From assembly GCA_963659495.1 (NCBI GenBank), contig CAVKTH010000002.1, forward strand, positions 10,712 to 74,711: a stretch of DNA of 64,000 nt. Reading direction: 5' to 3'. Positions 2,320-58,257 of this stretch are shown one piece after another (position 1 is the first letter of the stretch; every line of letters begins with the position of its first letter). This stretch comes from Bacteroidaceae bacterium (GTDB lineage: Bacteria > Pseudomonadota > Alphaproteobacteria > RF32 > CAG-239). The position numbers and the translations under genes are program-made. A model generated the notes under the pieces. It was not told the DNA's origin. It ran no database searches and saw only the letters and a program-made list of their open reading frames with translations.

Positions 2320-2975
2320 TGGCTGAAGAAATTACAGACAGCTCCTTAAATGATGCCGCGGCAGCAACCCTGCAGACCGGCAATGATTTAATAGATGCCA
2401 CGCAAAATGCTATTATAGATGCGGCAGAAAATGTATCTGAAGTATTTGATAAAGCAAATCCGGATATTGCACACCAGCTGACGGAAGTTCCGTTTTATGC
2501 TGATGTGGAATTTTGGGTCGGCATGGCTTTTATTTTATCAATCGTGGTGCTGGCCAAACCGGCTTACCGTTTTTTGAAAAGTGCTATGCGCGGCAAAATT
2601 GAGTCTGTAAAAAATCAAATTGCCGATGCGGAAAAGCTGCGCGATGATGCTCAAGAGCTTTTAGCTCAATATGAACGCAAATTCGCGGCAACCGAATCTG
2701 AAGTAGCAGAAATCTTGAAGCAAGCCGAAAAAAACATTGCTAATCAAAAGAAAAATGATTTAGCTCAGCTGAAAGAAAATACTGCGGTTAAAGAAAAAGA
2801 AATTAAACGCCGTATTTTAAGCTCTACCGAAAACGCCATGGCGGAAATAAATCAGTCTGTAGCCCGCTCTTCCGTGGAAGTTGCTAAAAAAGCCATTTTG
2901 GCTCATATCAGCAAAGCAAATAAAAGCGCGTTGATTGATGAGGCTATTGCCAGCTTGGATAAGTTTATTAAATAA
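2319..2975 (+). CDS. atpF: F0F1 ATP synthase subunit b, with an N-terminal extension
   Basis: 218 aa. A TM helix (GMAFILSIVVLA) is followed by a charged coiled coil (IADAEKLRDDAQELLAQYERK...). Its start overlaps the stop of the previous b-like gene. Confidence 0.75.
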   Translation: MAEEITDSSLNDAAAATLQTGNDLIDATQNAIIDAAENVSEVFDKANPDIAHQLTEVPFYADVEFWVGMAFILSIVVLAKPAYRFLKSAMRGKIESVKNQIADAEKLRDDAQELLAQYERKFAATESEVAEILKQAEKNIANQKKNDLAQLKENTAVKEKEIKRRILSSTENAMAEINQSVARSSVEVAKKAILAHISKANKSALIDEAIASLDKFIK

Positions 2976-3005
2976 GCTTCAAACATTTACAAATAATAAT
3001 CCTAA

Positions 3006-3045
3006 AAGTTACTGCGGTAATTTTTGGGATTTTTTTATTTTTCTT
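3006..3045 (+). terminator. Putative intrinsic terminator of the atp F0 operon
   Basis: Imperfect stem aagttac/gtaattt with loop tgcg, followed by ttgggattttttta. The stem is weak. Confidence 0.35.
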
Positions 3046-3096
3046 TACAACATAGTTATATATTGCTAAAATATCAGCGGATAGGCGATAGTCTGT

Positions 3097-3312
3097 CTAG
3101 GGCGTGAGAACCCTTTAATACAATTAGTCGTTATGCATAAACGACTTAAATTTTGTTATGCCGATTTCTGTTCGCTGGACGGATGTCGGCTGAATATGGC
3201 TATGAGCTGAATAAGCCGAGCCGTTCTAATTGTATTACGGTTTCTCAACATCCGCCCGCCATTTTGGTGGGTTTTGTTTTATGTGTAACAAAATTAAACG
3301 GAGTTTAGAAAT
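3097..3312 (+). ncRNA. Conserved structured 5' leader (candidate riboswitch or attenuator RNA) of pilin-like gene copy 1
   Basis: About 215 nt at roughly 80% identity to the region upstream of the second pilin-like gene (51176-51393, minus). The two copies preserve three hairpins through compensatory changes. One hairpin is agtcgtt-atgcata-aacgact (3126-3146) against agtcact-tgcata-agtgact. An intrinsic terminator (cccgcc...ggtggg + UUUUGUUUU, 3253-3280) lies 32 nt before the ATG. Confidence 0.6.
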
Positions 3313-4452
3313 ATGTATAATAATTTTGAAAATGTTAATGATAAATTTGCTGGCGGCACTAAGCCCACGTCTCTGGCACCAGTCATTCTAGGCTCTGTGC
3401 CTAGCATCTTGTGGAAACGAGTCTCTAACCTAGTTAATAAATTAACCTTATTATTAAATAAGTACTGGGATAGCATGCTTAGTGCTATTTGCAAGTTTTT
3501 TAAGTACCCCTCACCCGACGCCAAGACGTCACCCTCTCCCTCACGGGGCGAGGGTTATGGATTGCTTCGCAGCGCTCGCAATGACGCCGTAATTAATGGC
3601 GAGGGATTGCACCGCCCTTGGTGCCACAAGATACTAGGCACAGGGCCTAGTATGACTGGTGGCAGAGACGCTGGTTTTGTTAGATTGCTTCGTTGTTACA
3701 CTCCTCGCAATGACGCAAAAAGAACCAACATCGCATTTAAGGGTTTGGATGTCGTGCGTCAATACGCCGCACTTTTGGAGCGACGTGTACAACGAGGTAC
3801 ACGAGCGAGAAAAGCGCTAGTAGTGACCCGACAGGCAAACCCGCTAGGACGCAGTATGATAGAAATGCTCGGCGTTTTAGCGATTGTTGCCGTATTAACT
3901 ATTGCAGGTATTGCCTGTTATAGCAAAGCTATGACGATGTTTAAAATCAACAAATGGAAAGAAAATTTTACTATGATGATGACAAATCTTAGAGTCACAT
4001 ATTCTAACAGCCGCAGCTATAATACTGAGGCTCCGGGTAAAAACATGGTGAGTTTTTTCAAAGAAATAAATGTTATACCTGCTAATATGCTAGATGATGA
4101 AAATAAAGATTTATTCGGAAATATAGTCAGCATATATTCGCCGACATTTAGTCCGGAATGGAACCGGCTGACTATTCTGTTTTTTATGCCGCCGAATAAA
4201 GAATCTGTTGAAGTTTGCAAAGCTTTTTTCAGTCTCACTCCCGATTTTAGAAATATGTGGACGGTAAATCTCAATGATAATTTAAAAATCGGAGAATATC
4301 AACTATGCGGGTATGGCGTACCGGCTGAAATTGCTAAACAATGGAATTGTCAATATTATAGAGACGGCATTTTGCCGCAAATAGCTCAAAGCTGCGCTAT
4401 ATGTTCACAGTATTCCTGCGACCTAAAGCTTATAATAAGCAACAACAGCTAA
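3313..4452 (+). CDS. Prepilin-like protein (type IV pilin / pseudopilin N-terminal domain) with a long repeat-laden N-terminal extension; copy 1
   Basis: G-RSMIEMLGVLAIVAVLTIAGIA at codon 3847 matches the prepilin cleavage/methylation motif (Gly at -1, Glu at +5, hydrophobic helix). The C-terminal 200 aa are Cys-containing and variable. The MYNNFEN start is shared with paralogue copy 2. The 177-codon N-terminal extension (3313-3846) stays open despite being built from palindromic repeats. A true start near the TM segment cannot be excluded. Confidence 0.55.
   Translation: MYNNFENVNDKFAGGTKPTSLAPVILGSVPSILWKRVSNLVNKLTLLLNKYWDSMLSAICKFFKYPSPDAKTSPSPSRGEGYGLLRSARNDAVINGEGLHRPWCHKILGTGPSMTGGRDAGFVRLLRCYTPRNDAKRTNIAFKGLDVVRQYAALLERRVQRGTRARKALVVTRQANPLGRSMIEMLGVLAIVAVLTIAGIACYSKAMTMFKINKWKENFTMMMTNLRVTYSNSRSYNTEAPGKNMVSFFKEINVIPANMLDDENKDLFGNIVSIYSPTFSPEWNRLTILFFMPPNKESVEVCKAFFSLTPDFRNMWTVNLNDNLKIGEYQLCGYGVPAEIAKQWNCQYYRDGILPQIAQSCAICSQYSCDLKLIISNNS
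3371..3667 (+). repeat. MITE-like palindromic element inserted in-frame: 44-nt terminal inverted repeats (3371-3414 and 3624-3667), each with a ctagg-N7-cctag hairpin core
   Basis: The reverse complement of 3371-3414 matches 3624-3667 at 40/44. A shorter related element lies at the same relative position in copy 2 (51051-51112). The elements encode VILGSVPSIL and KILGTGPSMTGGRDA. Confidence 0.6.
3559..3717 (+). repeat. Two related attgc...gcaat hairpin repeats (3559-3588 and 3682-3717) inside the pilin-like 5' region
   Basis: ggattgcttcgcagcgctcgcaatgacgcc is paired with agattgcttcgttgttacactcctcgcaatgacgca. Both read in frame as LLRSARNDA and LLRCYTPRNDA. Confidence 0.5.
3739..3845 (+). repeat. 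105-bp palindromic repeat element (gggtttg...caaaccc), copy A, in-frame inside the pilin-like gene
   Basis: About 85% identical to 4508-4612. Its termini are inverted (gggtttg/caaaccc) and it has internal hairpins cgtc...gacg and gtgtac...gtacac. It encodes KGLDVVRQYAALLERRVQRGTRARKALVVTRQANPLG immediately before the prepilin Gly. Confidence 0.6.
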
Positions 4453-4461
4453 ACTAAAACC

Positions 4462-4503
4462 ATCCCGAAAACCGCAGCTGCAATCTTTGGGATGGTTTTG
4501 TTA
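4462..4503 (+). terminator. Intrinsic terminator after pilin-like gene copy 1
   Basis: A 9-bp stem aaccatccc/gggatggtt is followed by ttgtt. Confidence 0.5.
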
Positions 4504-4507
4504 ATAA

Positions 4508-4612
4508 CTCAAGGGTTTGGATGTTGTGTGTCAATACGCCGCACTTTTGGAACGTGGTGTACAAATAGTACATGAGTGAGAAAAGTGCAAGCAGAGACCT
4601 GACAGACAAGCC
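4508..4612 (+). repeat. 105-bp palindromic repeat element, copy B (intergenic, between the pilin-like gene and fba)
   Basis: Direct repeat of 3739-3845. This copy contains in-frame stops, so it is non-coding. Confidence 0.6.
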
Positions 4613-4621
4613 CTTATAAAA

Positions 4622-5671
4622 TTAGAGTTCGCCGGCAGCGTATCTTTGTGCCATATCCGACAATTTGATAGCTTTAATTTGGTCTGCATGTCCAGCAGCG
4701 CCAAAGGCAATATAACGAGCTTCGCAAACTTTCTGCATTTCTTCAATAGCAGGTTTCAAATATTTACGAGGGTCAAACTCTTTCGGATTTTCCATAAAGA
4801 AACGACGGATAGCGCCGGTAATTGCCATACGGGAATCGGTATCTACATTGACTTTGCGAACACCGGATTTAATACCGCGGACAATTTCTTCTACCGGAAC
4901 GCCGTAGGTCTGAGGAATAGCACCGCCGTAAGCATTGATTAAATCTTGCAATTCCTGCGGAACAGAAGAAGAACCATGCATTACCAAGTGAGTGTTAGGC
5001 AATTTAGCATGAATTTTTTCAATAACATCAATAGCCAAAATATCGCCGTCCGGTTTACGAGTGAATTTGTAAGCGCCGTGAGAGGTACCAACAGCCACAG
5101 CCAAAGCATCCAAATGTGTCAAAGCTACAAATTCAGCAGCTTCATCAGGATCGGTTACCAAGCGTTTTCTATCCAATTTACCCTCAGCGCCGTGACCGTC
5201 TTCTTTATCAGCCTTACCGGTTTCCAAAGAGCCGATAACGCCCAGCTCGCCCTCAACAGAAGCGCCGACAGCGTGAGCGCGGGCTACAACTTCTTGAGTT
5301 ACGCGAACGTTATATTCAAATGAAGCCGGGGTTTTGCCGTCTGCTTCCAAAGAGCCGTCCATCATTACAGAGCTGTAACCGTTTACGATAGCGGATTGGC
5401 AGATATTTACAGAAGCGCCGTGGTCTTGGTGCAAGCAAATCGGCAATTCCGGAAACATTTCAATACCGGCCATTACCATATGGCGAATCATTGGGTCGCC
5501 GGCAAATTTACGAGCGCCGGTAGAGGTTTGCAAAATAACCGGAGCGTTTACTTTTTTAGCAGCTTGCAATACAGCTAAAATTTGTTCCATATCGTTTACG
5601 TTGAAAGCCGGAACACCATAACCGTGTTCTGCCGCATGGTCAAGAATTTGACGCATAGATACTAAAGGCAT
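4622..5671 (-). CDS. fba: Class II fructose-bisphosphate aldolase
   Basis: 349 aa: MPLVSMRQILDHAAEHGYGVPAFNVNDMEQ..., with the CLHQDHG metal-binding region typical of class II FBA. Confidence 0.9.
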   Translation of the reverse strand: MPLVSMRQILDHAAEHGYGVPAFNVNDMEQILAVLQAAKKVNAPVILQTSTGARKFAGDPMIRHMVMAGIEMFPELPICLHQDHGASVNICQSAIVNGYSSVMMDGSLEADGKTPASFEYNVRVTQEVVARAHAVGASVEGELGVIGSLETGKADKEDGHGAEGKLDRKRLVTDPDEAAEFVALTHLDALAVAVGTSHGAYKFTRKPDGDILAIDVIEKIHAKLPNTHLVMHGSSSVPQELQDLINAYGGAIPQTYGVPVEEIVRGIKSGVRKVNVDTDSRMAITGAIRRFFMENPKEFDPRKYLKPAIEEMQKVCEARYIAFGAAGHADQIKAIKLSDMAQRYAAGEL

Positions 5672-26645: not shown

Positions 26646-28862
26646 ATGGCACTAAAAGAACGTGGAGAAGAATGGAAAGAATATGACAGCGCCGTCCGCT
26701 GGATGATGATTACTTTTCTTATTTGTCTGGGCTTAACGATTTTCCTCTTTATTTTTGCCCTGCCTTTGTCATATTTGGTCGGTCACGGCGTTTCTAAAGC
26801 CTCTTTTGAGATGATAAATAAGTTTTTGGCCACGATTGTAGACAATCCCGGACATTTATGGGCTATGTACCTGAAATGGTTTAAGCAGCTCATCCGCTAC
26901 AACGGCTCTTTTTCGCTCAGCTTATGGCTGCCGCTGCTGCCGTTTATCACTATTCCGGTGGGTTTGATTGTCGGTGCTTTGCTCAGTCCGTATAAATTCC
27001 AAGTCAACACCCAAGGTTCGGCGCGAATCGCCGAATTACGCGACATTAACAAGATGGCTTTGCTCGGATTTGACGGTTTCTGTCAGGTTGTGGGCAAATT
27101 CAAAGGTCGCTTTTTAATGCTGAAAGAAACCTTGGCCACCCTGTGCTGCGCTCCTCCGGGTACCGGTAAAACCGCCGGCGTGGTTATTCCGACAATTTTT
27201 AACTCGGCCAAGCTGAGCATTATTGTAAACGACCCGAAACCGGAGCTTTGCTATTCTACCAGCGGCGCCCGCGCCAAAGTAGGTCCGGTGTTTATCATCA
27301 ACTGGGGTGCCGAAGATAACCCGAGCGAGGGTATTTATTACCCAAGCTGGAATCCGCTGTCGCCGAACTCCATGCCGGAAGCCGGTCCGGACCGCGATAT
27401 GTATGTGGATTCTATGTGCAATATTTTGGTGGAAGACCCTAAGGGCGGCGCAGACCCGCACTGGGCTAACACCGGCCGTGCCGCACTAACCGGCTTTATT
27501 AACTTTGTGGCCTCTAAATGCGACCGCGCCCGCGCCAATGACTATTTTATCGGGCGTATTTATGAGGGCAAGCTGGACGCCAAAGATAAAGAGATTTTGG
27601 AGGGCTATTATATGGAGATGCGCGATCCGGCGGCTCCGCGCGCCATTCAAAACCTGAAAAACGGCACTTTAACTATGGAAAACTATCTGCCTATCGGTAC
27701 TTGGAACCTGCTGCCGTCGCGCTGGATGGGACGCGAAGCCTGCATTGCCATGATTATGGAATGGATTACCGAAGCGCAGATTAACGCCGCTCAAGAAATT
27801 CAGCGCCGTATGGACGAGGGCGATCAAATGGCGGCCATGGCCGACCCGACGCATGATATGCTGGAAGAAGCCGTGAAAGAAGCCCGCAACTTTGGTTATT
27901 CGCAGCGCTGTATCACAGAATTAAGCTCACTCAGCAGTATGCCGGATAAGGAGCGCGGCTCTGTGCTTTCTACCGCTTTTGCCGGTATCGGCTGCTTTAA
28001 GAACCAAGCCGTAAAAGCCCGCACCAGCTTTTCGGATATTCAGTTCCGCGACTTGCGCGGTATGAAAGATCCGGTTACCGGCGAATGGAAACCGATTTCG
28101 GTTTATTTGTCCGTAAACCAAGTAGATGCGCGCGCTTTGGGCGTTATCAGCAGTACGTTTATTGAGCTTATGTCGTCCTACCTGATTTCTAACCCGCCTA
28201 ACCACGTTAATAAAACCGACGGTAAAATGGGACCTTTCCCGACATTGTTCATTCTGGACGAGTTCCCGCAAATGCCGAAAATGAAAGCTATTATTGACGG
28301 TCCGGCCGTAGGCCGCGGTCAGAAAGTGTCATATTTGCTGATTGGACAAGACTTAGGACAAATCTCCGGCAAATATGGTAAAGATGACTTGGAAACGGTG
28401 ATCTCTACCACCGCCTGCAAGATTATTCTTTCACAAAACAACGAGGTTACAGCTCAGCGCTTTTCTAAGATGATCGGCAACAAGACCGTACAGGTTTCGT
28501 CATTCAGCCGAACAGAGGGCAGCTTGGGCAAGGACTTTAACCCGCTGGCTAAGAATGTTAACTATCAAATGCAGGGCGTGCCGGTTATCAGCGCTACTCA
28601 GCTGCTGAGCTTGCCGTTGCTGAAGCAAGTTATCTTGATGCAAAGTTACATTGACCGCCCGATTATGGCAGATTCGCCGCGTTATTATCTTGACCCGAAA
28701 ATGCGTAAGTTGGCTAAGCTTCCGCCTTGCCCGAATGTTCCGGATTGGATTGTGGCGCAGCGTGAAGACATCAACGACGACATGCTGGCTAAGCTCGGAA
28801 TTGAGTATAATCCTGACGAAGAAGATAATGACAGCTTTGAGGCGGATACACCGCAAGCATAA
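26646..28862 (+). CDS. Type IV secretion coupling protein (VirD4/TraG/DotL family)
   Basis: 738 aa with N-terminal TM helices, Walker A CCAPPGTGKTAGVVIPT and Walker B LFILDEFPQMPKM. The acidic C-terminal tail ends ...NPDEEDNDSFEADTPQA. Confidence 0.85.
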   Translation: MALKERGEEWKEYDSAVRWMMITFLICLGLTIFLFIFALPLSYLVGHGVSKASFEMINKFLATIVDNPGHLWAMYLKWFKQLIRYNGSFSLSLWLPLLPFITIPVGLIVGALLSPYKFQVNTQGSARIAELRDINKMALLGFDGFCQVVGKFKGRFLMLKETLATLCCAPPGTGKTAGVVIPTIFNSAKLSIIVNDPKPELCYSTSGARAKVGPVFIINWGAEDNPSEGIYYPSWNPLSPNSMPEAGPDRDMYVDSMCNILVEDPKGGADPHWANTGRAALTGFINFVASKCDRARANDYFIGRIYEGKLDAKDKEILEGYYMEMRDPAAPRAIQNLKNGTLTMENYLPIGTWNLLPSRWMGREACIAMIMEWITEAQINAAQEIQRRMDEGDQMAAMADPTHDMLEEAVKEARNFGYSQRCITELSSLSSMPDKERGSVLSTAFAGIGCFKNQAVKARTSFSDIQFRDLRGMKDPVTGEWKPISVYLSVNQVDARALGVISSTFIELMSSYLISNPPNHVNKTDGKMGPFPTLFILDEFPQMPKMKAIIDGPAVGRGQKVSYLLIGQDLGQISGKYGKDDLETVISTTACKIILSQNNEVTAQRFSKMIGNKTVQVSSFSRTEGSLGKDFNPLAKNVNYQMQGVPVISATQLLSLPLLKQVILMQSYIDRPIMADSPRYYLDPKMRKLAKLPPCPNVPDWIVAQREDINDDMLAKLGIEYNPDEEDNDSFEADTPQA

Positions 28863-50141: not shown

Positions 50142-50216
50142 GCCATTATAGCTCAGTGGTAGAGCACGTCATTGGTAATGACGGGGTCGCAAGTCCGATT
50201 CTTGCTAATGGCACCA
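50142..50216 (+). tRNA. tRNA-Thr (anticodon GGU)
   Basis: Cloverleaf folded by hand. Acceptor gccatta/taatggc, D-stem gctc/gagc, anticodon stem cgtca/tgacg with loop ttGGTaa, T-stem gcaag/cttgc, discriminator A, and encoded CCA. The T-loop reads tccgatt, giving an unusual C at position 55. Confidence 0.8.
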
Positions 50217-50422: not shown

Positions 50423-51175
50423 TCAAAATGCTAAAATAAGTCCGCAGACTTTACCGGCTTCTTTTGTGCATGAATTGCAAGCGCTGTTGATTTCGCTTAA
50501 AGACAAATCTCTTATACATTTTGAATTTGCCGAACAATAAGCCTCGCCCCAATAATAATAGCTGCTGTCCGTTGTAAACCACGCTACATACAGCACAGAG
50601 GCTAAAGGCTGCACGATATCCGACATTATCCGCTTGCATAACTTTGGAGAAAAGGCGGTTGAGGCTGATTTATTATCAACAACCTGAAAACTGCCTAAAT
50701 ACATATCTATAATTACACGCTCTCCAGAAGAAAAAACACGAATATAATTGCCGTTTGGGTCATGAAAATCGGAGCTGCTGTCTCTTACCCAAGTTTTCGG
50801 CACTAAATTTGCCGCCTCCACAATATCTGTCAGCCCATACTGCGCACCAGCTGTCCCATTTTTTGAAACGTTTTTTAAATCTGTAAGATGTTCTAACAAT
50901 CCATAAATTAAATAGCTGTATTCGCTAACAGCTTTGATTAGTTTGAATTGTTCCATAGCCTTGGAATATCCGGCAATTCCGCCGACACTCAGCACACCGA
51001 TAATCGCCAGCACGCCGAGCATTTCTATCATTGACCGACCAAAGGAATTTGCGTCTCTGCCGCCAGTCATTCTAGGTCGTGACGCACAGTCTGTACCTAG
51101 GATCTTGTCGCCCAAGGGTGACGCGACAGCGCAGAGCGGCGGGTATTCTAAAGCATTTTCAAAATTTTTATACAT
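50423..51175 (-). CDS. Prepilin-like protein, copy 2 (paralogue of 3313-4452)
   Basis: The MYKNFEN start lies at the same offset from the conserved leader as in copy 1. It contains the repeat-derived KILGTDCASRPRMTGGRDA segment and the G-RSMIEMLGVLAIIGVLSVGGIAGYSKAM prepilin motif. The C-terminus is Cys-containing and variable. The six-frame ORF start at 51346 is rejected because that extension lies inside the conserved non-coding leader. Confidence 0.6.
   Translation of the reverse strand: MYKNFENALEYPPLCAVASPLGDKILGTDCASRPRMTGGRDANSFGRSMIEMLGVLAIIGVLSVGGIAGYSKAMEQFKLIKAVSEYSYLIYGLLEHLTDLKNVSKNGTAGAQYGLTDIVEAANLVPKTWVRDSSSDFHDPNGNYIRVFSSGERVIIDMYLGSFQVVDNKSASTAFSPKLCKRIMSDIVQPLASVLYVAWFTTDSSYYYWGEAYCSANSKCIRDLSLSEINSACNSCTKEAGKVCGLILAF
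51051..51112. repeat. Palindromic repeat element (ctagg...cctag) related to the terminal inverted repeats at 3371/3624, in-frame in pilin-like copy 2
   Basis: gcgtctctgccgccagtcattctagg-[21 nt]-cctaggatcttgtcgcc aligns to 3371-3414 with a longer loop. Confidence 0.55.
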
Positions 51176-51393
51176 ATTTCTAACTCCGTTTAATTTGTTA
51201 CATAAAACAAAACCCGCTGTAAATGCGGGCGGATGTTCAGAAACCGTAAATCGTAATCGTAAAACGGCTCGGCCTATTCGGCGTGTAGCCTTATTTAACC
51301 GACATCCGTCCAAAAACAGAAGTCGGCATAAACAGTTTAAAGTCACTTATGCAAGTGACTGATTACGATTAAAAGGGTTTCTGACGCCCTAGG
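51176..51393 (-). ncRNA. Conserved structured 5' leader (candidate riboswitch or attenuator RNA) of pilin-like gene copy 2
   Basis: Homologue of 3097-3312, with hairpin agtcact-tgcata-agtgact (51342-51361) and terminator cccgc-atttacag-gcggg + UUUUGUUUU (51205-51235). Confidence 0.6.
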
Positions 51394-51448
51394 CATATCT
51401 CTATACCTATAAATTTTATAGCTTATGCCAAAAGGAAAGTAAAGAACT

Positions 51449-53143
51449 TTATTCGGTCAAAAAATTGCCTCTGCTATTGCCTTGCGATAAATAAATTTTA
51501 CCGTCTAAATAAACTACAGACAATTCTTTTTCCCGAATATTAGGGGTTTGAGTATCTGAATGTTCTTTTTCATAGTTTTTCAAAAATTCTGCAAACTCCT
51601 CAACTTGTTCCGAGGTTAAGTTTTCATTTTTCGGCTCAGGAGATGTTCCATAAGGCACAGAACCGCGTAAATAATCATAGACATCATTGCCTTGCGAATC
51701 AGTCAATTTCAAATCGGCGCCATTTTCAACTAAATACTTAGCAATATCTAAATGACCTTCTTGCACCGCATACATCAAAGCTGTTCTTTCTCCATACTGT
51801 ATGCAAATATCATCATTGCAATAATAACCGTTGTCTTTATTGCCGGCATTAGTCTGAGCATCTATATCTGCACCGGCATCTAACAATATTTTTACGCTGT
51901 CTAAAAAGCCGTATTGAGCTGCATACATCAACGCGGTTTTGCCTATAGAATTTACAGCATTTACATCTGTATTTATTCCTTTACACTTATTTTCGGAACA
52001 CTCCTGTAGCAATAAAGCCAAAACATCAGGACGATGAATGCTTATCATTAAAATTTCATCGGCCTCAACCGGTATCTGCGGCTCTTTAAGAGTTTCTCCG
52101 CCCTGAATTTGCTTTACAATCAAATCTTTAATTTCATCTATCGGCGCACCAGAGAGAATTTTATAGCGCAGAGTGCTTTTATCTACCGGTTCTCCGCGGG
52201 TTGCCGGCGGCATCATTACTAAATGAGCATATTGCTCTGCCATTTTTTCCGAAACCTTAAACGTTTTAACATAATGCTGAGCCAGCTGCTTTACCGCTTC
52301 TTTAAAACCTATGCCGTAATTTAGAGTTTCCGTAACTTTTTTATAATTCGGATATGAGGCCATCGCCCATTCTTCCAGCGGCATAACTTTCAGATATTTT
52401 TCATTGCCTTTGATATTCCAATCCGGATTATAGCGGTAAATGTTATCATAGTATTTTTCCTTTGCCTGATAAACAAAACGGCTGGAGCCGCCACTCTCAA
52501 AATAAAAATTGCTATACAAGTTATAGTAAAATTTGTTTACTTCTTTAGGAAAATCATATTCTTCATATTGCGAACAGTTAGAAATATCTATTGCTTCAGC
52601 TCCGTGACCGCCGCCGGCATAATCCAAAACAGCCGTCATTTTAAGCTTTCGCGCTGTAGGGCAGGGAACAATAATCTGCCATGGCGTATAATTTATATAA
52701 TTACTTTCATTATCCCAAATATTAAAAAATTTAGAAAAATGCAAAGCCCCGATTTCTATCAAGCATTTTAACTGCTCGTAGCATTTCAGCGGATTTTCTC
52801 CCACTAATTCTAAATAGTCCTCTTGGTACATTCTATAAAAAGGCTCATTCGGCACAATTTTTTCGTATTGAGCAACCAATTTTTCATGCAATCTTTGGGC
52901 AATTTGCGAAAACTCTTTAGTCTTTATCTGTTGAGGATGATAGATACTCTGCAATATTAAATATTCAATCGCAGCGGAATCATTTGTATCAATCAATTTT
53001 TTGAGCTGTTTAATAGCTTGATTCGGATTATTTTTAATGGCCTCGGTTATCTTTTCGTATTCATTATAATCTTTATTTGTTTCTACAGCAAACGCTGAAA
53101 AACTAAATAAGCTCATTAACAGCAAAATTAAAAACTTTTTCAT
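51449..53143 (-). CDS. Secreted ankyrin-repeat protein
   Basis: Signal peptide MKKFLILLLMSLFSFSAFA. At least three C-terminal ankyrin repeats (GKTALMYAAQYGFLDSVKILLDAGADID...; ERTALMYAVQEGHLDIAKYLVENGADLK). Confidence 0.8.
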   Translation of the reverse strand: MKKFLILLLMSLFSFSAFAVETNKDYNEYEKITEAIKNNPNQAIKQLKKLIDTNDSAAIEYLILQSIYHPQQIKTKEFSQIAQRLHEKLVAQYEKIVPNEPFYRMYQEDYLELVGENPLKCYEQLKCLIEIGALHFSKFFNIWDNESNYINYTPWQIIVPCPTARKLKMTAVLDYAGGGHGAEAIDISNCSQYEEYDFPKEVNKFYYNLYSNFYFESGGSSRFVYQAKEKYYDNIYRYNPDWNIKGNEKYLKVMPLEEWAMASYPNYKKVTETLNYGIGFKEAVKQLAQHYVKTFKVSEKMAEQYAHLVMMPPATRGEPVDKSTLRYKILSGAPIDEIKDLIVKQIQGGETLKEPQIPVEADEILMISIHRPDVLALLLQECSENKCKGINTDVNAVNSIGKTALMYAAQYGFLDSVKILLDAGADIDAQTNAGNKDNGYYCNDDICIQYGERTALMYAVQEGHLDIAKYLVENGADLKLTDSQGNDVYDYLRGSVPYGTSPEPKNENLTSEQVEEFAEFLKNYEKEHSDTQTPNIREKELSVVYLDGKIYLSQGNSRGNFLTE

Positions 53144-54296: not shown

Positions 54297-55103
54297 TTAT
54301 TTATCTGCGGAGCAGCAGTCTTCCACATCGCTGATATCGGCCATTGCGTTAAAATTTCGGATATATTCTTCTTTGGTTAAGCAATTTTCCTTAGCTTTTT
54401 TCTCGTCTTTATAAACTTCGCGCCAATCGGCTTCCGGCATATCCGACATTGTGTCTTTATTGCTTTCGGCCACATTTTTAGAAAAAACAACCATATATTC
54501 GGCGTATTCATCTGCCGTTACGCAGCCGTCTTTGTCTTTATCCATTTGAAAATAGTTTTCTTCGGCGATGCCCTGAGATATGCTGCCGATTATATTATCC
54601 GACATTTCTTCGGCTGATGTGTCTTGAAATTTTTCTAAGGCAGCTTTAGCCTTATCCATTTTTTCTTGGAAATCTTTCATTATTTCTTCGGGAGATTTAT
54701 TTGCCAGTTCCTGCGCCATTTTCTGCGCTTGTTCGGCACGCTCTTTGGCCTCATATTCGGTTTCTTTTTGCAAAACCTCAAAATATTCTTCTTTGCTGAG
54801 GCGGGAATCGCCGTTTCTATCGGCTTGCTTAAAATATTCCTGCATGCGGGATTTTTTAGCCGCTTTCTGCTCGTCGTTCAGATTAAAATCAATATCAATG
54901 CTTTTAAGCAAATAGCCGTATTCATTTTCAGAAATAAAACCGTCGCTGTTTACGTCATTAAGCTCAAAACCGCTGCTCAGCATACCTTGAATCTCCGGAT
55001 CCGACATTTTTTCCTGCACGGTTTTCTGCCAGTCAAAATCCTGCGTTTCCTCGGCTTGAGCTGAAAAAACAATCAAAAAGCTGAAAAGAACCAATTTATA
55101 CAT
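54297..55103 (-). CDS. Secreted EF-hand calcium-binding protein
   Basis: Signal peptide MYKLVLFSFLIVFSAQA. Three canonical EF-hand loops (DVNSDGFISENE, DRNGDSRLSKEE, DKDKDGCVTADE). Confidence 0.7.
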   Translation of the reverse strand: MYKLVLFSFLIVFSAQAEETQDFDWQKTVQEKMSDPEIQGMLSSGFELNDVNSDGFISENEYGYLLKSIDIDFNLNDEQKAAKKSRMQEYFKQADRNGDSRLSKEEYFEVLQKETEYEAKERAEQAQKMAQELANKSPEEIMKDFQEKMDKAKAALEKFQDTSAEEMSDNIIGSISQGIAEENYFQMDKDKDGCVTADEYAEYMVVFSKNVAESNKDTMSDMPEADWREVYKDEKKAKENCLTKEEYIRNFNAMADISDVEDCCSADK

Positions 55104-58084: not shown

Positions 58085-58257
58085 GTTGTTTATATGAAAA
58101 ATTTTAACGACTGAAAAAACTGATAACAACTAAAATACAAGACTTTGTTTCACATGAAACAGGGTCTTTTTTTATTTTATGCCGCCTTAAACTTAATCAA
58201 AATTTAAATTCTTTTATTTATGCTAAAGTCAGATTTTTATCTTTAATGAGGGTTGAC

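Follow-up and report, generated by a model that had tools for sequence, protein, structure and literature searches.

How can a protein that carries the cleavage motif of a type IV prepilin begin with 46 or even 179 codons, most of them derived from palindromic DNA repeats, and still be read as a single open frame? The question is raised by two genes in a 64,000-nucleotide (nt) stretch of an alphaproteobacterial assembly (GCA_963659495.1, contig CAVKTH010000002.1, positions 10,712 to 74,711; hereafter the window). Copy 1 is an open reading frame (ORF) of 379 amino acids (aa) at 3313-4452 (+), and copy 2 is an ORF of 250 aa, counted from MYKNFEN, at 50423-51175 (-). We compared both with 210 non-identical members of their family that were located in fetched DNA of related loci. 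The best explanation as a whole, to which we give a probability of roughly 0.6, is that these genes encode pilin-like proteins with expanded, modular leaders that are translated and then cleaved.

The window genes belong to a large family with a prepilin-type N-terminus

Both ORFs were found as a preliminary description of the window had placed them, with the motif G-RSMIEMLGVLAI and its glycine at -1 (Gly-1) and glutamate at +5 (Glu+5). The MY[NK]NFEN start and the string ...KILGT...MTGGRDA..., noted there as common to the two copies, are indeed present in both, as is the segment from G-RSMIEMLGVLAI to ...YSKAM. The parts of the two genes are as follows.

3300-3315 (+): Shine-Dalgarno GGAG (3300-3303) and canonical ATG (3313-3315) of copy 1; 33 genes of the family have the pattern GGAG-N9-ATG TAT AA. 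AAT TT. GAA after the leader RNA
3313-3849 (+): leader-coding region of copy 1, 179 codons including the Gly-1 codon at 3847-3849, with 0 stops in frame
3337-3502, 3503-3556 and 3557-3592 (+): copy 1 modules e1, e2 and e3, which recur in other family leaders
3593-3675, 3676-3718 and 3719-3849 (+): copy 1 modules e4 (an inverted copy of the e1 core), e5 and e6
3850-4452 (+): pilin-like mature region of copy 1, RSMIEMLGVLAIVAVL..., 200 aa (7 Cys) and the stop codon; AlphaFold2 (AF2) predicts a helix at 180-232, then a β-sheet
4456-4499 (+): 22-nt inverted repeat directly 3' of the copy 1 stop codon, possibly a terminator
4511-4617 (+): decayed, non-coding e6 copy 3' of copy 1, with a stop and a frame shift in the equivalent frame
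51038-51175 (-): leader-coding region of copy 2, 46 codons from the ATG (51175-51173) to the Gly-1 codon (51040-51038); 135 nt from ATG to Gly, in frame, 0 stops
50423-51037 (-): pilin-like mature region of copy 2, 204 aa (6 Cys) and the stop codon, from the AF2 model and homologues

The earlier estimate of about 178 leader residues for copy 1 agrees with the 179 counted with the glycine, whereas the 47 given for copy 2 become 46 by its Gly codon. The copy 2 leader holds a single e4-type module, KILGTDCASRPRMTGGRDA, at about 51106-51050. The sequences after the transmembrane (TM) helix are Cys-containing (7 and 6 Cys), as described, but not unrelated: they are 28% identical and have Cys, Pro and Gly positions in common. 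The two C-terminal domains are colinear on the family profile over 118 columns (hhalign E = 8e-4) and by this alignment are divergent homologues.

The 210-gene comparison bore out that the two are paralogues within a variable family of Cys-containing proteins whose N-terminus is of the prepilin type. With copy 2 as query, more than 7,800 homologues were retrieved from human-gut metagenomes and metagenome-assembled genomes (MAGs) that carry the label Alphaproteobacteria; a few bear the name 'type II secretion system GspH family protein', while the majority have neither a name nor a Pfam domain. A family profile searched against 1.84 billion representatives matched 5,533 clusters at 50% identity, 3,848 of them with E <= 1e-10, and a scan of GTDB species genomes gave more than 550 matching places in a handful of species. 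Paralogues are numerous, with at least 50 distinct members in one MAG and at least 31 in another, and the genes stand singly or in tandem, scattered among housekeeping genes. The neighbourhood of a short-leader member (P0014) likewise consists of housekeeping genes, with no pilus genes found there. A literature search on the family found nothing. Some alphaproteobacterial family contigs (L008, L028, L031, L033, L038, L050, L053, L067, L068, L071, L076 and L078) lie in bins labelled Eubacteriales, Bacteroidaceae or [Ruminococcus] gnavus, which are probably mis-binned or mislabelled MAGs.

Gly-1, an Arg, Lys or His at +1, and Ser at +2 occur in 210/210 genes, and none of these positions was part of the search motif. 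Glu+5 is invariant as well; although it lies inside the search motif, alignment A4 shows independently that it is invariant. From -2 to -7 the residues vary freely, and everything upstream of Gly-1 is hypervariable, a sharp boundary that is what a processing site predicts. About 60 of the 210 members have classical leaders of 6-8 aa, such as MKQNQFG, MKNQSG and MYKNFEKG, each ending in Gly-1. Class III signal peptide leaders are described as short and hydrophilic, at 6-26 aa (PMC4471445), and the window genes, with 46 and 179 aa, lie outside this range. The hydrophobic stretch that follows covers ~21 residues, with Kyte-Doolittle 19-residue maxima of 2.2-2.4 at the predicted segment, and AF2 places helices at 16-49 in copy 2 and at 180-232 in copy 1. 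The copy 2 model, which has a mean predicted local distance difference test score (pLDDT) of 87.6, consists of a long N-terminal helix followed by a β-sheet.

Weak matches to curated hidden Markov models (HMMs) occur throughout the family, to N_methyl in 96/119 members and to TIGR02532 in 106/119, and two members have precomputed Bundlin or PilS_N matches. The best sequence match of the family profile in the PDB is Geobacter PilA-N, with Gly-1 and Glu5 in register, at a marginal E = 0.13. The invariant Gly-1 and Glu+5, the short leaders and the family-wide HMM matches therefore identify a pilin-type N-terminus. Of the suggestion that these are surface or pilin proteins with a prepilin N-terminus, the family and the N-terminus thus hold, whereas cleavage, surface location and pilus formation are what we infer from them.

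The long leaders are open frames under selection

Family genes are preceded by three kinds of 5' start module, here types A, B and C. Type A, found at both window genes, has an RNA-like region of ~200 nt, then GGAG, then ATG TAT AA. AAT TT. GAA. In 14 type A genes, 33-534 nt are inserted between the ATG and Gly-1; all lengths are multiples of three, and the frame contains 0 stops in 1,119 codons versus 45 and 123 in the other two frames. Type B starts with MFKGIEFF... and runs in frame to Gly-1, at ten different lengths, in 29/29 genes; the 1,502 codons contain 1 stop versus 105 and 126 in the other frames. In type C, the frame from the repeat end to Gly-1 is conserved and open in 66/68 genes with more than 45 different lengths. 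For copy 1 itself, the remark that its open frame goes beyond chance was confirmed by 0 stops in frame versus 10 and 21 in the other two.

The module copies provide a control. Inside leaders, 175/175 copies are open in the usual frame (0 stops in 5,511 codons), whereas outside leaders 13/28 contain stops (31 in 1,084 codons). Mismatches among module copies are lowest at second codon positions, at 6.5% versus 10.8% and 12.1% at the others. That the long in-frame extension is real and under selection is thus supported by open frames across all three start types, and we are confident that the extension is translated.

The type B start region comprises a hairpin, GTGTAAAAA...TTTTTTTTACAC, with a T8 run, the strong Shine-Dalgarno sequence GAGGAGG and ATG TTT AAG GG. 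ATA GAA TTT TT (for example, L012:9815-9950 and L004:9816-9950). The T8 tract upstream of this start was considered as a second phase-variable site and ruled out because it is T8 in 29/29 copies.

A dinucleotide tract sets the frame in related genes

The type C start has the layout TTGACT-17-TGTTATAGAAT, AGAGGAAAG, then ATG AAA AAT AAG C.. ..C AAA GG(TC)nT GCAAATCC, the (TC)n tract lying after codon 8. Of the copies counted, 65 have n = 7, 20 have n = 8 and 5 have n = 6. The upstream ATG is in frame only at n = 6, 9 or 12, and out of frame at n = 7 and 8. Complete ORFs of 268-343 aa are present in 4/5 of the n = 6 copies, the fifth lying at a contig end, and the n = 12 allele (P0308), which is in frame from the ATG, gives a complete ORF of 311 aa. 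The n = 9 allele, also in frame from the ATG, is known only as a 62-aa contig fragment (P0363), and a protein search for on-state alleles gave five fragments only. Examples of the tract are as follows.

L001:5062-5108 (-): (TC)n tract
L141:1001-1050: (TC)n tract
L030:2738-2784: (TC)n tract, n = 7
L117:2896-2940: (TC)n tract, n = 6

The orthologues in L030 and L117 are 93% identical over ~330 nt, and a single TC unit is their sole length difference; L108 (n = 8) pairs similarly with L087 (n = 7). At the locus between atpF and fba, the copy 1 orthologue has (TC)7, the off state, in L001, L003 and L084, and (TC)12, the on state with 311 aa, in L141. As read from these aligned alleles, (TC)n unit differences among orthologues are the signature of slipped-strand phase variation. 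On and off alleles at the same locus are thus found between relatives and not at the window genes, as the window itself contains no (TC)n or (GA)n tract of five or more units. A frame switch that lies hundreds of nt upstream works only if ribosomes read through the modules.

The repeats are leader modules of this family

The six copy 1 modules have 243 matching places in 1.7 Mb of DNA, in both orientations; 216 lie inside leader zones of family genes and the remaining 27 within 1.5 kb of a family gene. When the copy 1 leader peptide alone was searched against 5.8 billion proteins, 145 proteins were found. Among the 101 new leader-matching proteins, 95 carry GRSMIEMLG and the other six are truncated fragments with family starts. 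As the matches are confined to the family, the repeats are family-specific leader modules, and genome-wide miniature inverted-repeat transposable elements (MITEs) or elements of the Rickettsia palindromic element (RPE) type were rejected on both the DNA and the protein searches. The view of a leader built from in-frame palindromic repeats is therefore retained, but not that of general genomic palindromic elements.

Orthologues that match in their mature parts at 93% identity or more have leaders of different content. The copy 2 leader of 46 aa corresponds to the 6-aa MKNQSG in the orthologue of L137, which has the same 5' RNA. Orthologues of the mature part of copy 1 are P0308, P0310 and genes in L001 and L002; its 179-aa leader corresponds to MYNNFEKG in L002, with an ATA start and a frameshift, and the orthologous locus of L001 has a second gene and a type C start. 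In other orthologue pairs, the leader-length differences are 3, 24, 132 and 204 nt, each divisible by three. These differences would fit exchange by recombination among paralogues.

The atpF-fba locus as a whole (window 2975-4622, compared with L001, L002, L003 and L141) is polymorphic between strains with identical aldolase. The window has one gene with the 179-aa leader, L002 has one frameshifted gene with ATA for ATG, and L001, L003 and L141 have two tandem family genes.

The copy 1 leader-coding region is also strongly folded as RNA, with a minimum free energy of -217.5 kcal/mol for 3334-3849 versus -154 +/- 6 in shuffled sequences (z = -10.3). The e1 core (3375-3415) and e4 (3622-3662), which are mutually inverted, would form, in the mRNA or as an inverted repeat of the DNA, a duplex of ~40 bp around ~200 nt of leader-coding sequence.

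A covarying RNA precedes type A genes

The RNA-like regions upstream of the two window genes comprise the following features.

3044-3072 (+): promoter-like site (TTTACA-17-TAAAAT, with TG) between the atpF terminator, which it directly follows, and the copy 1 RNA, from a consensus scan only; its position agrees with the conserved RNA 5' end
3080-3282 (+): structured 5' leader RNA of copy 1 (type A), with a terminator-like hairpin at 3254-3272 and then a T-run, from a consensus scan
51202-51409 (-): structured 5' leader RNA of copy 2 (type A), with a terminator-like hairpin at 51230-51212

We aligned 38 RNA copies (A5), two from the window and 36 from related loci (for example, L023:9633-9900 and L051:11311-11579). 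RNAalifold predicted 52 pairs, of which 20 show compensatory changes. Three neighbouring long-range pairs are intact throughout, with two to four pair types at each, and one helix is hypervariable yet always complementary. In the named structure, 96.3% of cells are paired versus 35-43% in slid controls, and its covariation score is 0.356 versus 0.04-0.07. The T-run ends ~30 nt and the hairpin ~40 nt upstream of the ATG.

At gathering thresholds, Rfam returned nothing for the leader RNA, the sole find in the window being a tRNA-Thr. Below threshold, sRNA-Xcc1 scored 30.3 bits for copy 1 and 23.8 for copy 2 versus a gathering score of 53, and C4 scored 23.2 for copy 1 versus 45. We read the leader RNA as putatively cis-regulatory, by way of termination or read-through; alternatively, it may be a small RNA that is transcribed along with the gene. 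It is a candidate new regulatory RNA family.

A model for expression and processing

We propose that transcription would start upstream of the ~200-nt structured RNA, which would end in an intrinsic terminator, with read-through presumably regulated. Translation would begin at the Shine-Dalgarno-preceded ATG (MY[NK]NFEN), and the ribosome would pass 46 or 179 codons of family-specific palindromic modules before it enters the invariant G-RSMIEMLGVLAI... segment. The copy 1 leader has a net charge of +18, no hydrophobic or TM-like segment and an AF2 pLDDT below 50 over most of its length; a basic, mostly predicted-disordered leader of this kind would suit a cytoplasmic pre-sequence. Such a leader would stay in the cytoplasm while the hydrophobic helix enters the membrane, and a prepilin peptidase would cut after Gly-1, so that the leader is discarded. 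Its loss would explain how modules can be taken up and exchanged freely while the frame stays open.

Across the family, the same mature cassettes would stand under interchangeable 5' modules, namely the structured RNA, a second ATG module, and a promoter with a (TC)n tract. The leader modules and the conserved helix-coding segment may supply in-frame homology for exchange. We hold with moderate confidence that the extension is the cleaved class III leader of a surface or pilus protein. More tentatively, the whole may form a new surface-variation system of at least 50 cassettes per genome with disposable translated leaders, the modules possibly acting as in-frame recombination adaptors between expression modules. 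The latter might then comprise a switch of structured RNA and terminator, another that acts on the frame through (TC)n, and a third promoter module.

Alternative explanations

Several observations weigh against cleaved, pilin-like proteins. The expectation that PF07963 and TIGR02532 would recognise the window proteins was disappointed: both fall below the curated cut-offs (N_methyl 13.6 versus 21.2 bits, TIGR02532 11.9-12.5 versus 16.3), with copy 1 lacking any match there. Foldseek against the PDB gave neither a pilin nor any other match with E < 0.2. No A24 peptidase motif (GxGDxKL), GspE/PilB/TadA Walker A motif or His box was found in 1.69 Mb of related loci, and no A24 peptidase or GspE/PilB-type ATPase motif in the window, a negative that is weak because the search used motifs only and covered the genomes in part. 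Pfam scans of ~40 ORFs in the window agree with the preliminary remark that it contains no pilus genes. Arg at +1 is unusual for pilins, and leaders of 46 to more than 300 aa go far beyond the 6-26 aa of class III signal peptides (PMC4471445). Further, the in-frame statistics are overstated, since paralogues are not independent samples.

These points also bear on an explanation in which the leader is translated and never removed, so that the proteins would be bitopic and span the inner membrane by one TM helix, with a variable N-terminal tail on the cytoplasmic side and a Cys-rich domain in the periplasm, without any link to pili or a prepilin peptidase. The absence of peptidase and pilus machinery from the window Pfam and motif scans and the 1.69-Mb motif search, the lack of a structural pilin match and the sub-cut-off HMM scores would all agree with it, as would two moderately confident AF2 helices inside the copy 1 leader and the low variation at second codon positions of the modules, a hint of peptide constraint. 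However, a retained tail would not lead one to expect that hypervariable sequence gives way to invariant sequence exactly at Gly-1, with Glu+5 invariant, or that orthologues with 93% or more identity in their mature parts have different leader contents. Moreover, many members and orthologues have only 6-8 residues before the glycine, and a cytoplasmic domain is therefore not required. We consider an uncleaved leader rather doubtful.

The two remaining alternatives concern the repeats themselves, and both are less probable still. If the modules were selfish mobile palindromic elements, similar to RPEs or MITEs, that survive in a dispensable leader, their palindromic nature, their two orientations and their presence or absence between orthologues would follow, and in-frame insertion into ORFs is an RPE hallmark. 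Yet, in 1.7 Mb of DNA, 243/243 matches fall in a family gene or no more than 1.5 kb from one, the modules occur only in this pilin-like family among 5.8 billion proteins, and the 64-kb window holds no other copies. Within-family recombination accounts for this distribution better than transposition, which makes mobile elements improbable. Least probable by far is translation from an internal GTG, ATG or TTG beside the TM helix, for example GTG 3823 giving MTRQANPLG, with an upstream frame that is non-coding and open by accident. Both window genes do have an in-frame GTG and ATG 9-11 codons before Gly-1, and GC-richer palindromes contain fewer stop codons than the genome average. Against this stand the near-absence of stops in the type A and B leaders (0-1 in 1,119 and 1,502 codons versus 45-126 in other frames), insert lengths that are all multiples of three in both types, and the stops in module copies outside leaders. 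The module next to Gly-1 is not the same from gene to gene, which leaves no conserved internal start, and a (TC)n switch far upstream would be without effect. A true start beside the TM segment, which the preliminary description had allowed for, is thus contradicted, and we rejected it on the open-frame counts, the module control and the lack of a conserved start.

Comparison with known systems

Like type IV pilins and pseudopilins (PF07963, TIGR02532), the family has Gly-1, Glu+5 and a hydrophobic N-terminal helix of ~20 residues that runs into a long α1 and is followed by a β-sheet. It also resembles them in its variable, Cys-containing C-terminal domain, its mature length of ~200 aa and the short hydrophilic leaders of many members; in size and in the disulfide-rich C-terminus, the type IVb pilins bundlin and PilS are closest. 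It differs in Arg+1, in palindromic-module leaders of 46 to more than 300 aa and in having at least 50 paralogues per genome among housekeeping genes. Further differences are that peptidase and assembly genes were not seen in the window and 1.69 Mb, that HMM scores are below cut-offs and that Foldseek gave no match to solved pilins.

Rickettsia palindromic elements are in-frame insertions in protein genes and are dispersed over many unrelated genes and intergenic regions. They are similar in being palindromic repeats of an alphaproteobacterium that are translated within ORFs without breaking them. By contrast, the present modules are limited to the leaders of a single family, a region that the protein probably loses, and show none of the dispersal that defines RPEs.

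Simple repeats also set the reading frame elsewhere, as with the CTCTT repeats of Neisseria opa genes. The outer stem enclosing two hairpins is shared between the leader RNA and the sRNA-Xcc1 and C4 antisense RNAs (RF02221, RF01695), as is a location in the leader of a gene that the RNA possibly controls; both window copies gave full-length alignments to sRNA-Xcc1, and copy 1 also to C4. The family RNA differs in scoring far below gathering thresholds, in its length of ~200 nt, and in its extra helices and own terminator. Helicobacter pylori Hop genes (oipA/hopH, hopZ, babA/B, sabA) carry CT dinucleotide repeats in the 5' coding region (PMC3960876). They too form a multigene surface-protein family with a pyrimidine dinucleotide tract in the region coding for the pre-sequence, and the number of repeats decides whether the frame is on or off and varies from strain to strain at a given locus. 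In the present family, however, the tract lies in a prepilin-type leader, hundreds of nt upstream of the mature part, and in only one of at least three start modules; the window genes lack it, and the alleles were compared between strains. Thus pilin-type signal peptides and simple-repeat phase variation are already known, while the modular translated leader and its associated RNA appear to be undescribed.

Genomic setting

The window is chromosomal, with F0 ATP synthase genes, fba, acrAB-tolC-like genes, dnaE, parAB, gidAB and mnmE. It also encodes five proteins of host-interaction type, listed here with the tRNA gene near copy 2.

58246-63279 (+): autotransporter of 1,677 aa with internal Gly/Ala-rich DNA repeats
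26646-28862 (+): VirD4/TraG-type coupling protein
51449-53143 (-): ankyrin-repeat protein adjoining copy 2
54297-55103 (-): EF-hand protein
63299-63907 (+): Fic protein
50142-50216 (+): tRNA-Thr (GGT), ~200 nt downstream of copy 2 on the opposite strand

At the orthologous locus L137, the gene content between the EF-hand gene and a 702-aa gene is different, and the ankyrin gene is absent.

Implications

This family is among the most diversified gene families of an abundant, uncultured group of Alphaproteobacteria in the human gut. If its leaders are indeed translated and afterwards cut off, class III signal peptides would have a known range more than ten-fold larger, and the discarded pre-sequence would be a neutral space in which repeat modules can build up and be exchanged. 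Should the surface-variation system outlined above prove true, it would include the longest class III signal-peptide leaders known (>300 aa) and an undescribed class of cis-regulatory RNA. The (TC)n on and off alleles point to phase-variable surface structures in a commensal, which would be relevant to its interactions with immunoglobulin A (IgA), phages and the host.

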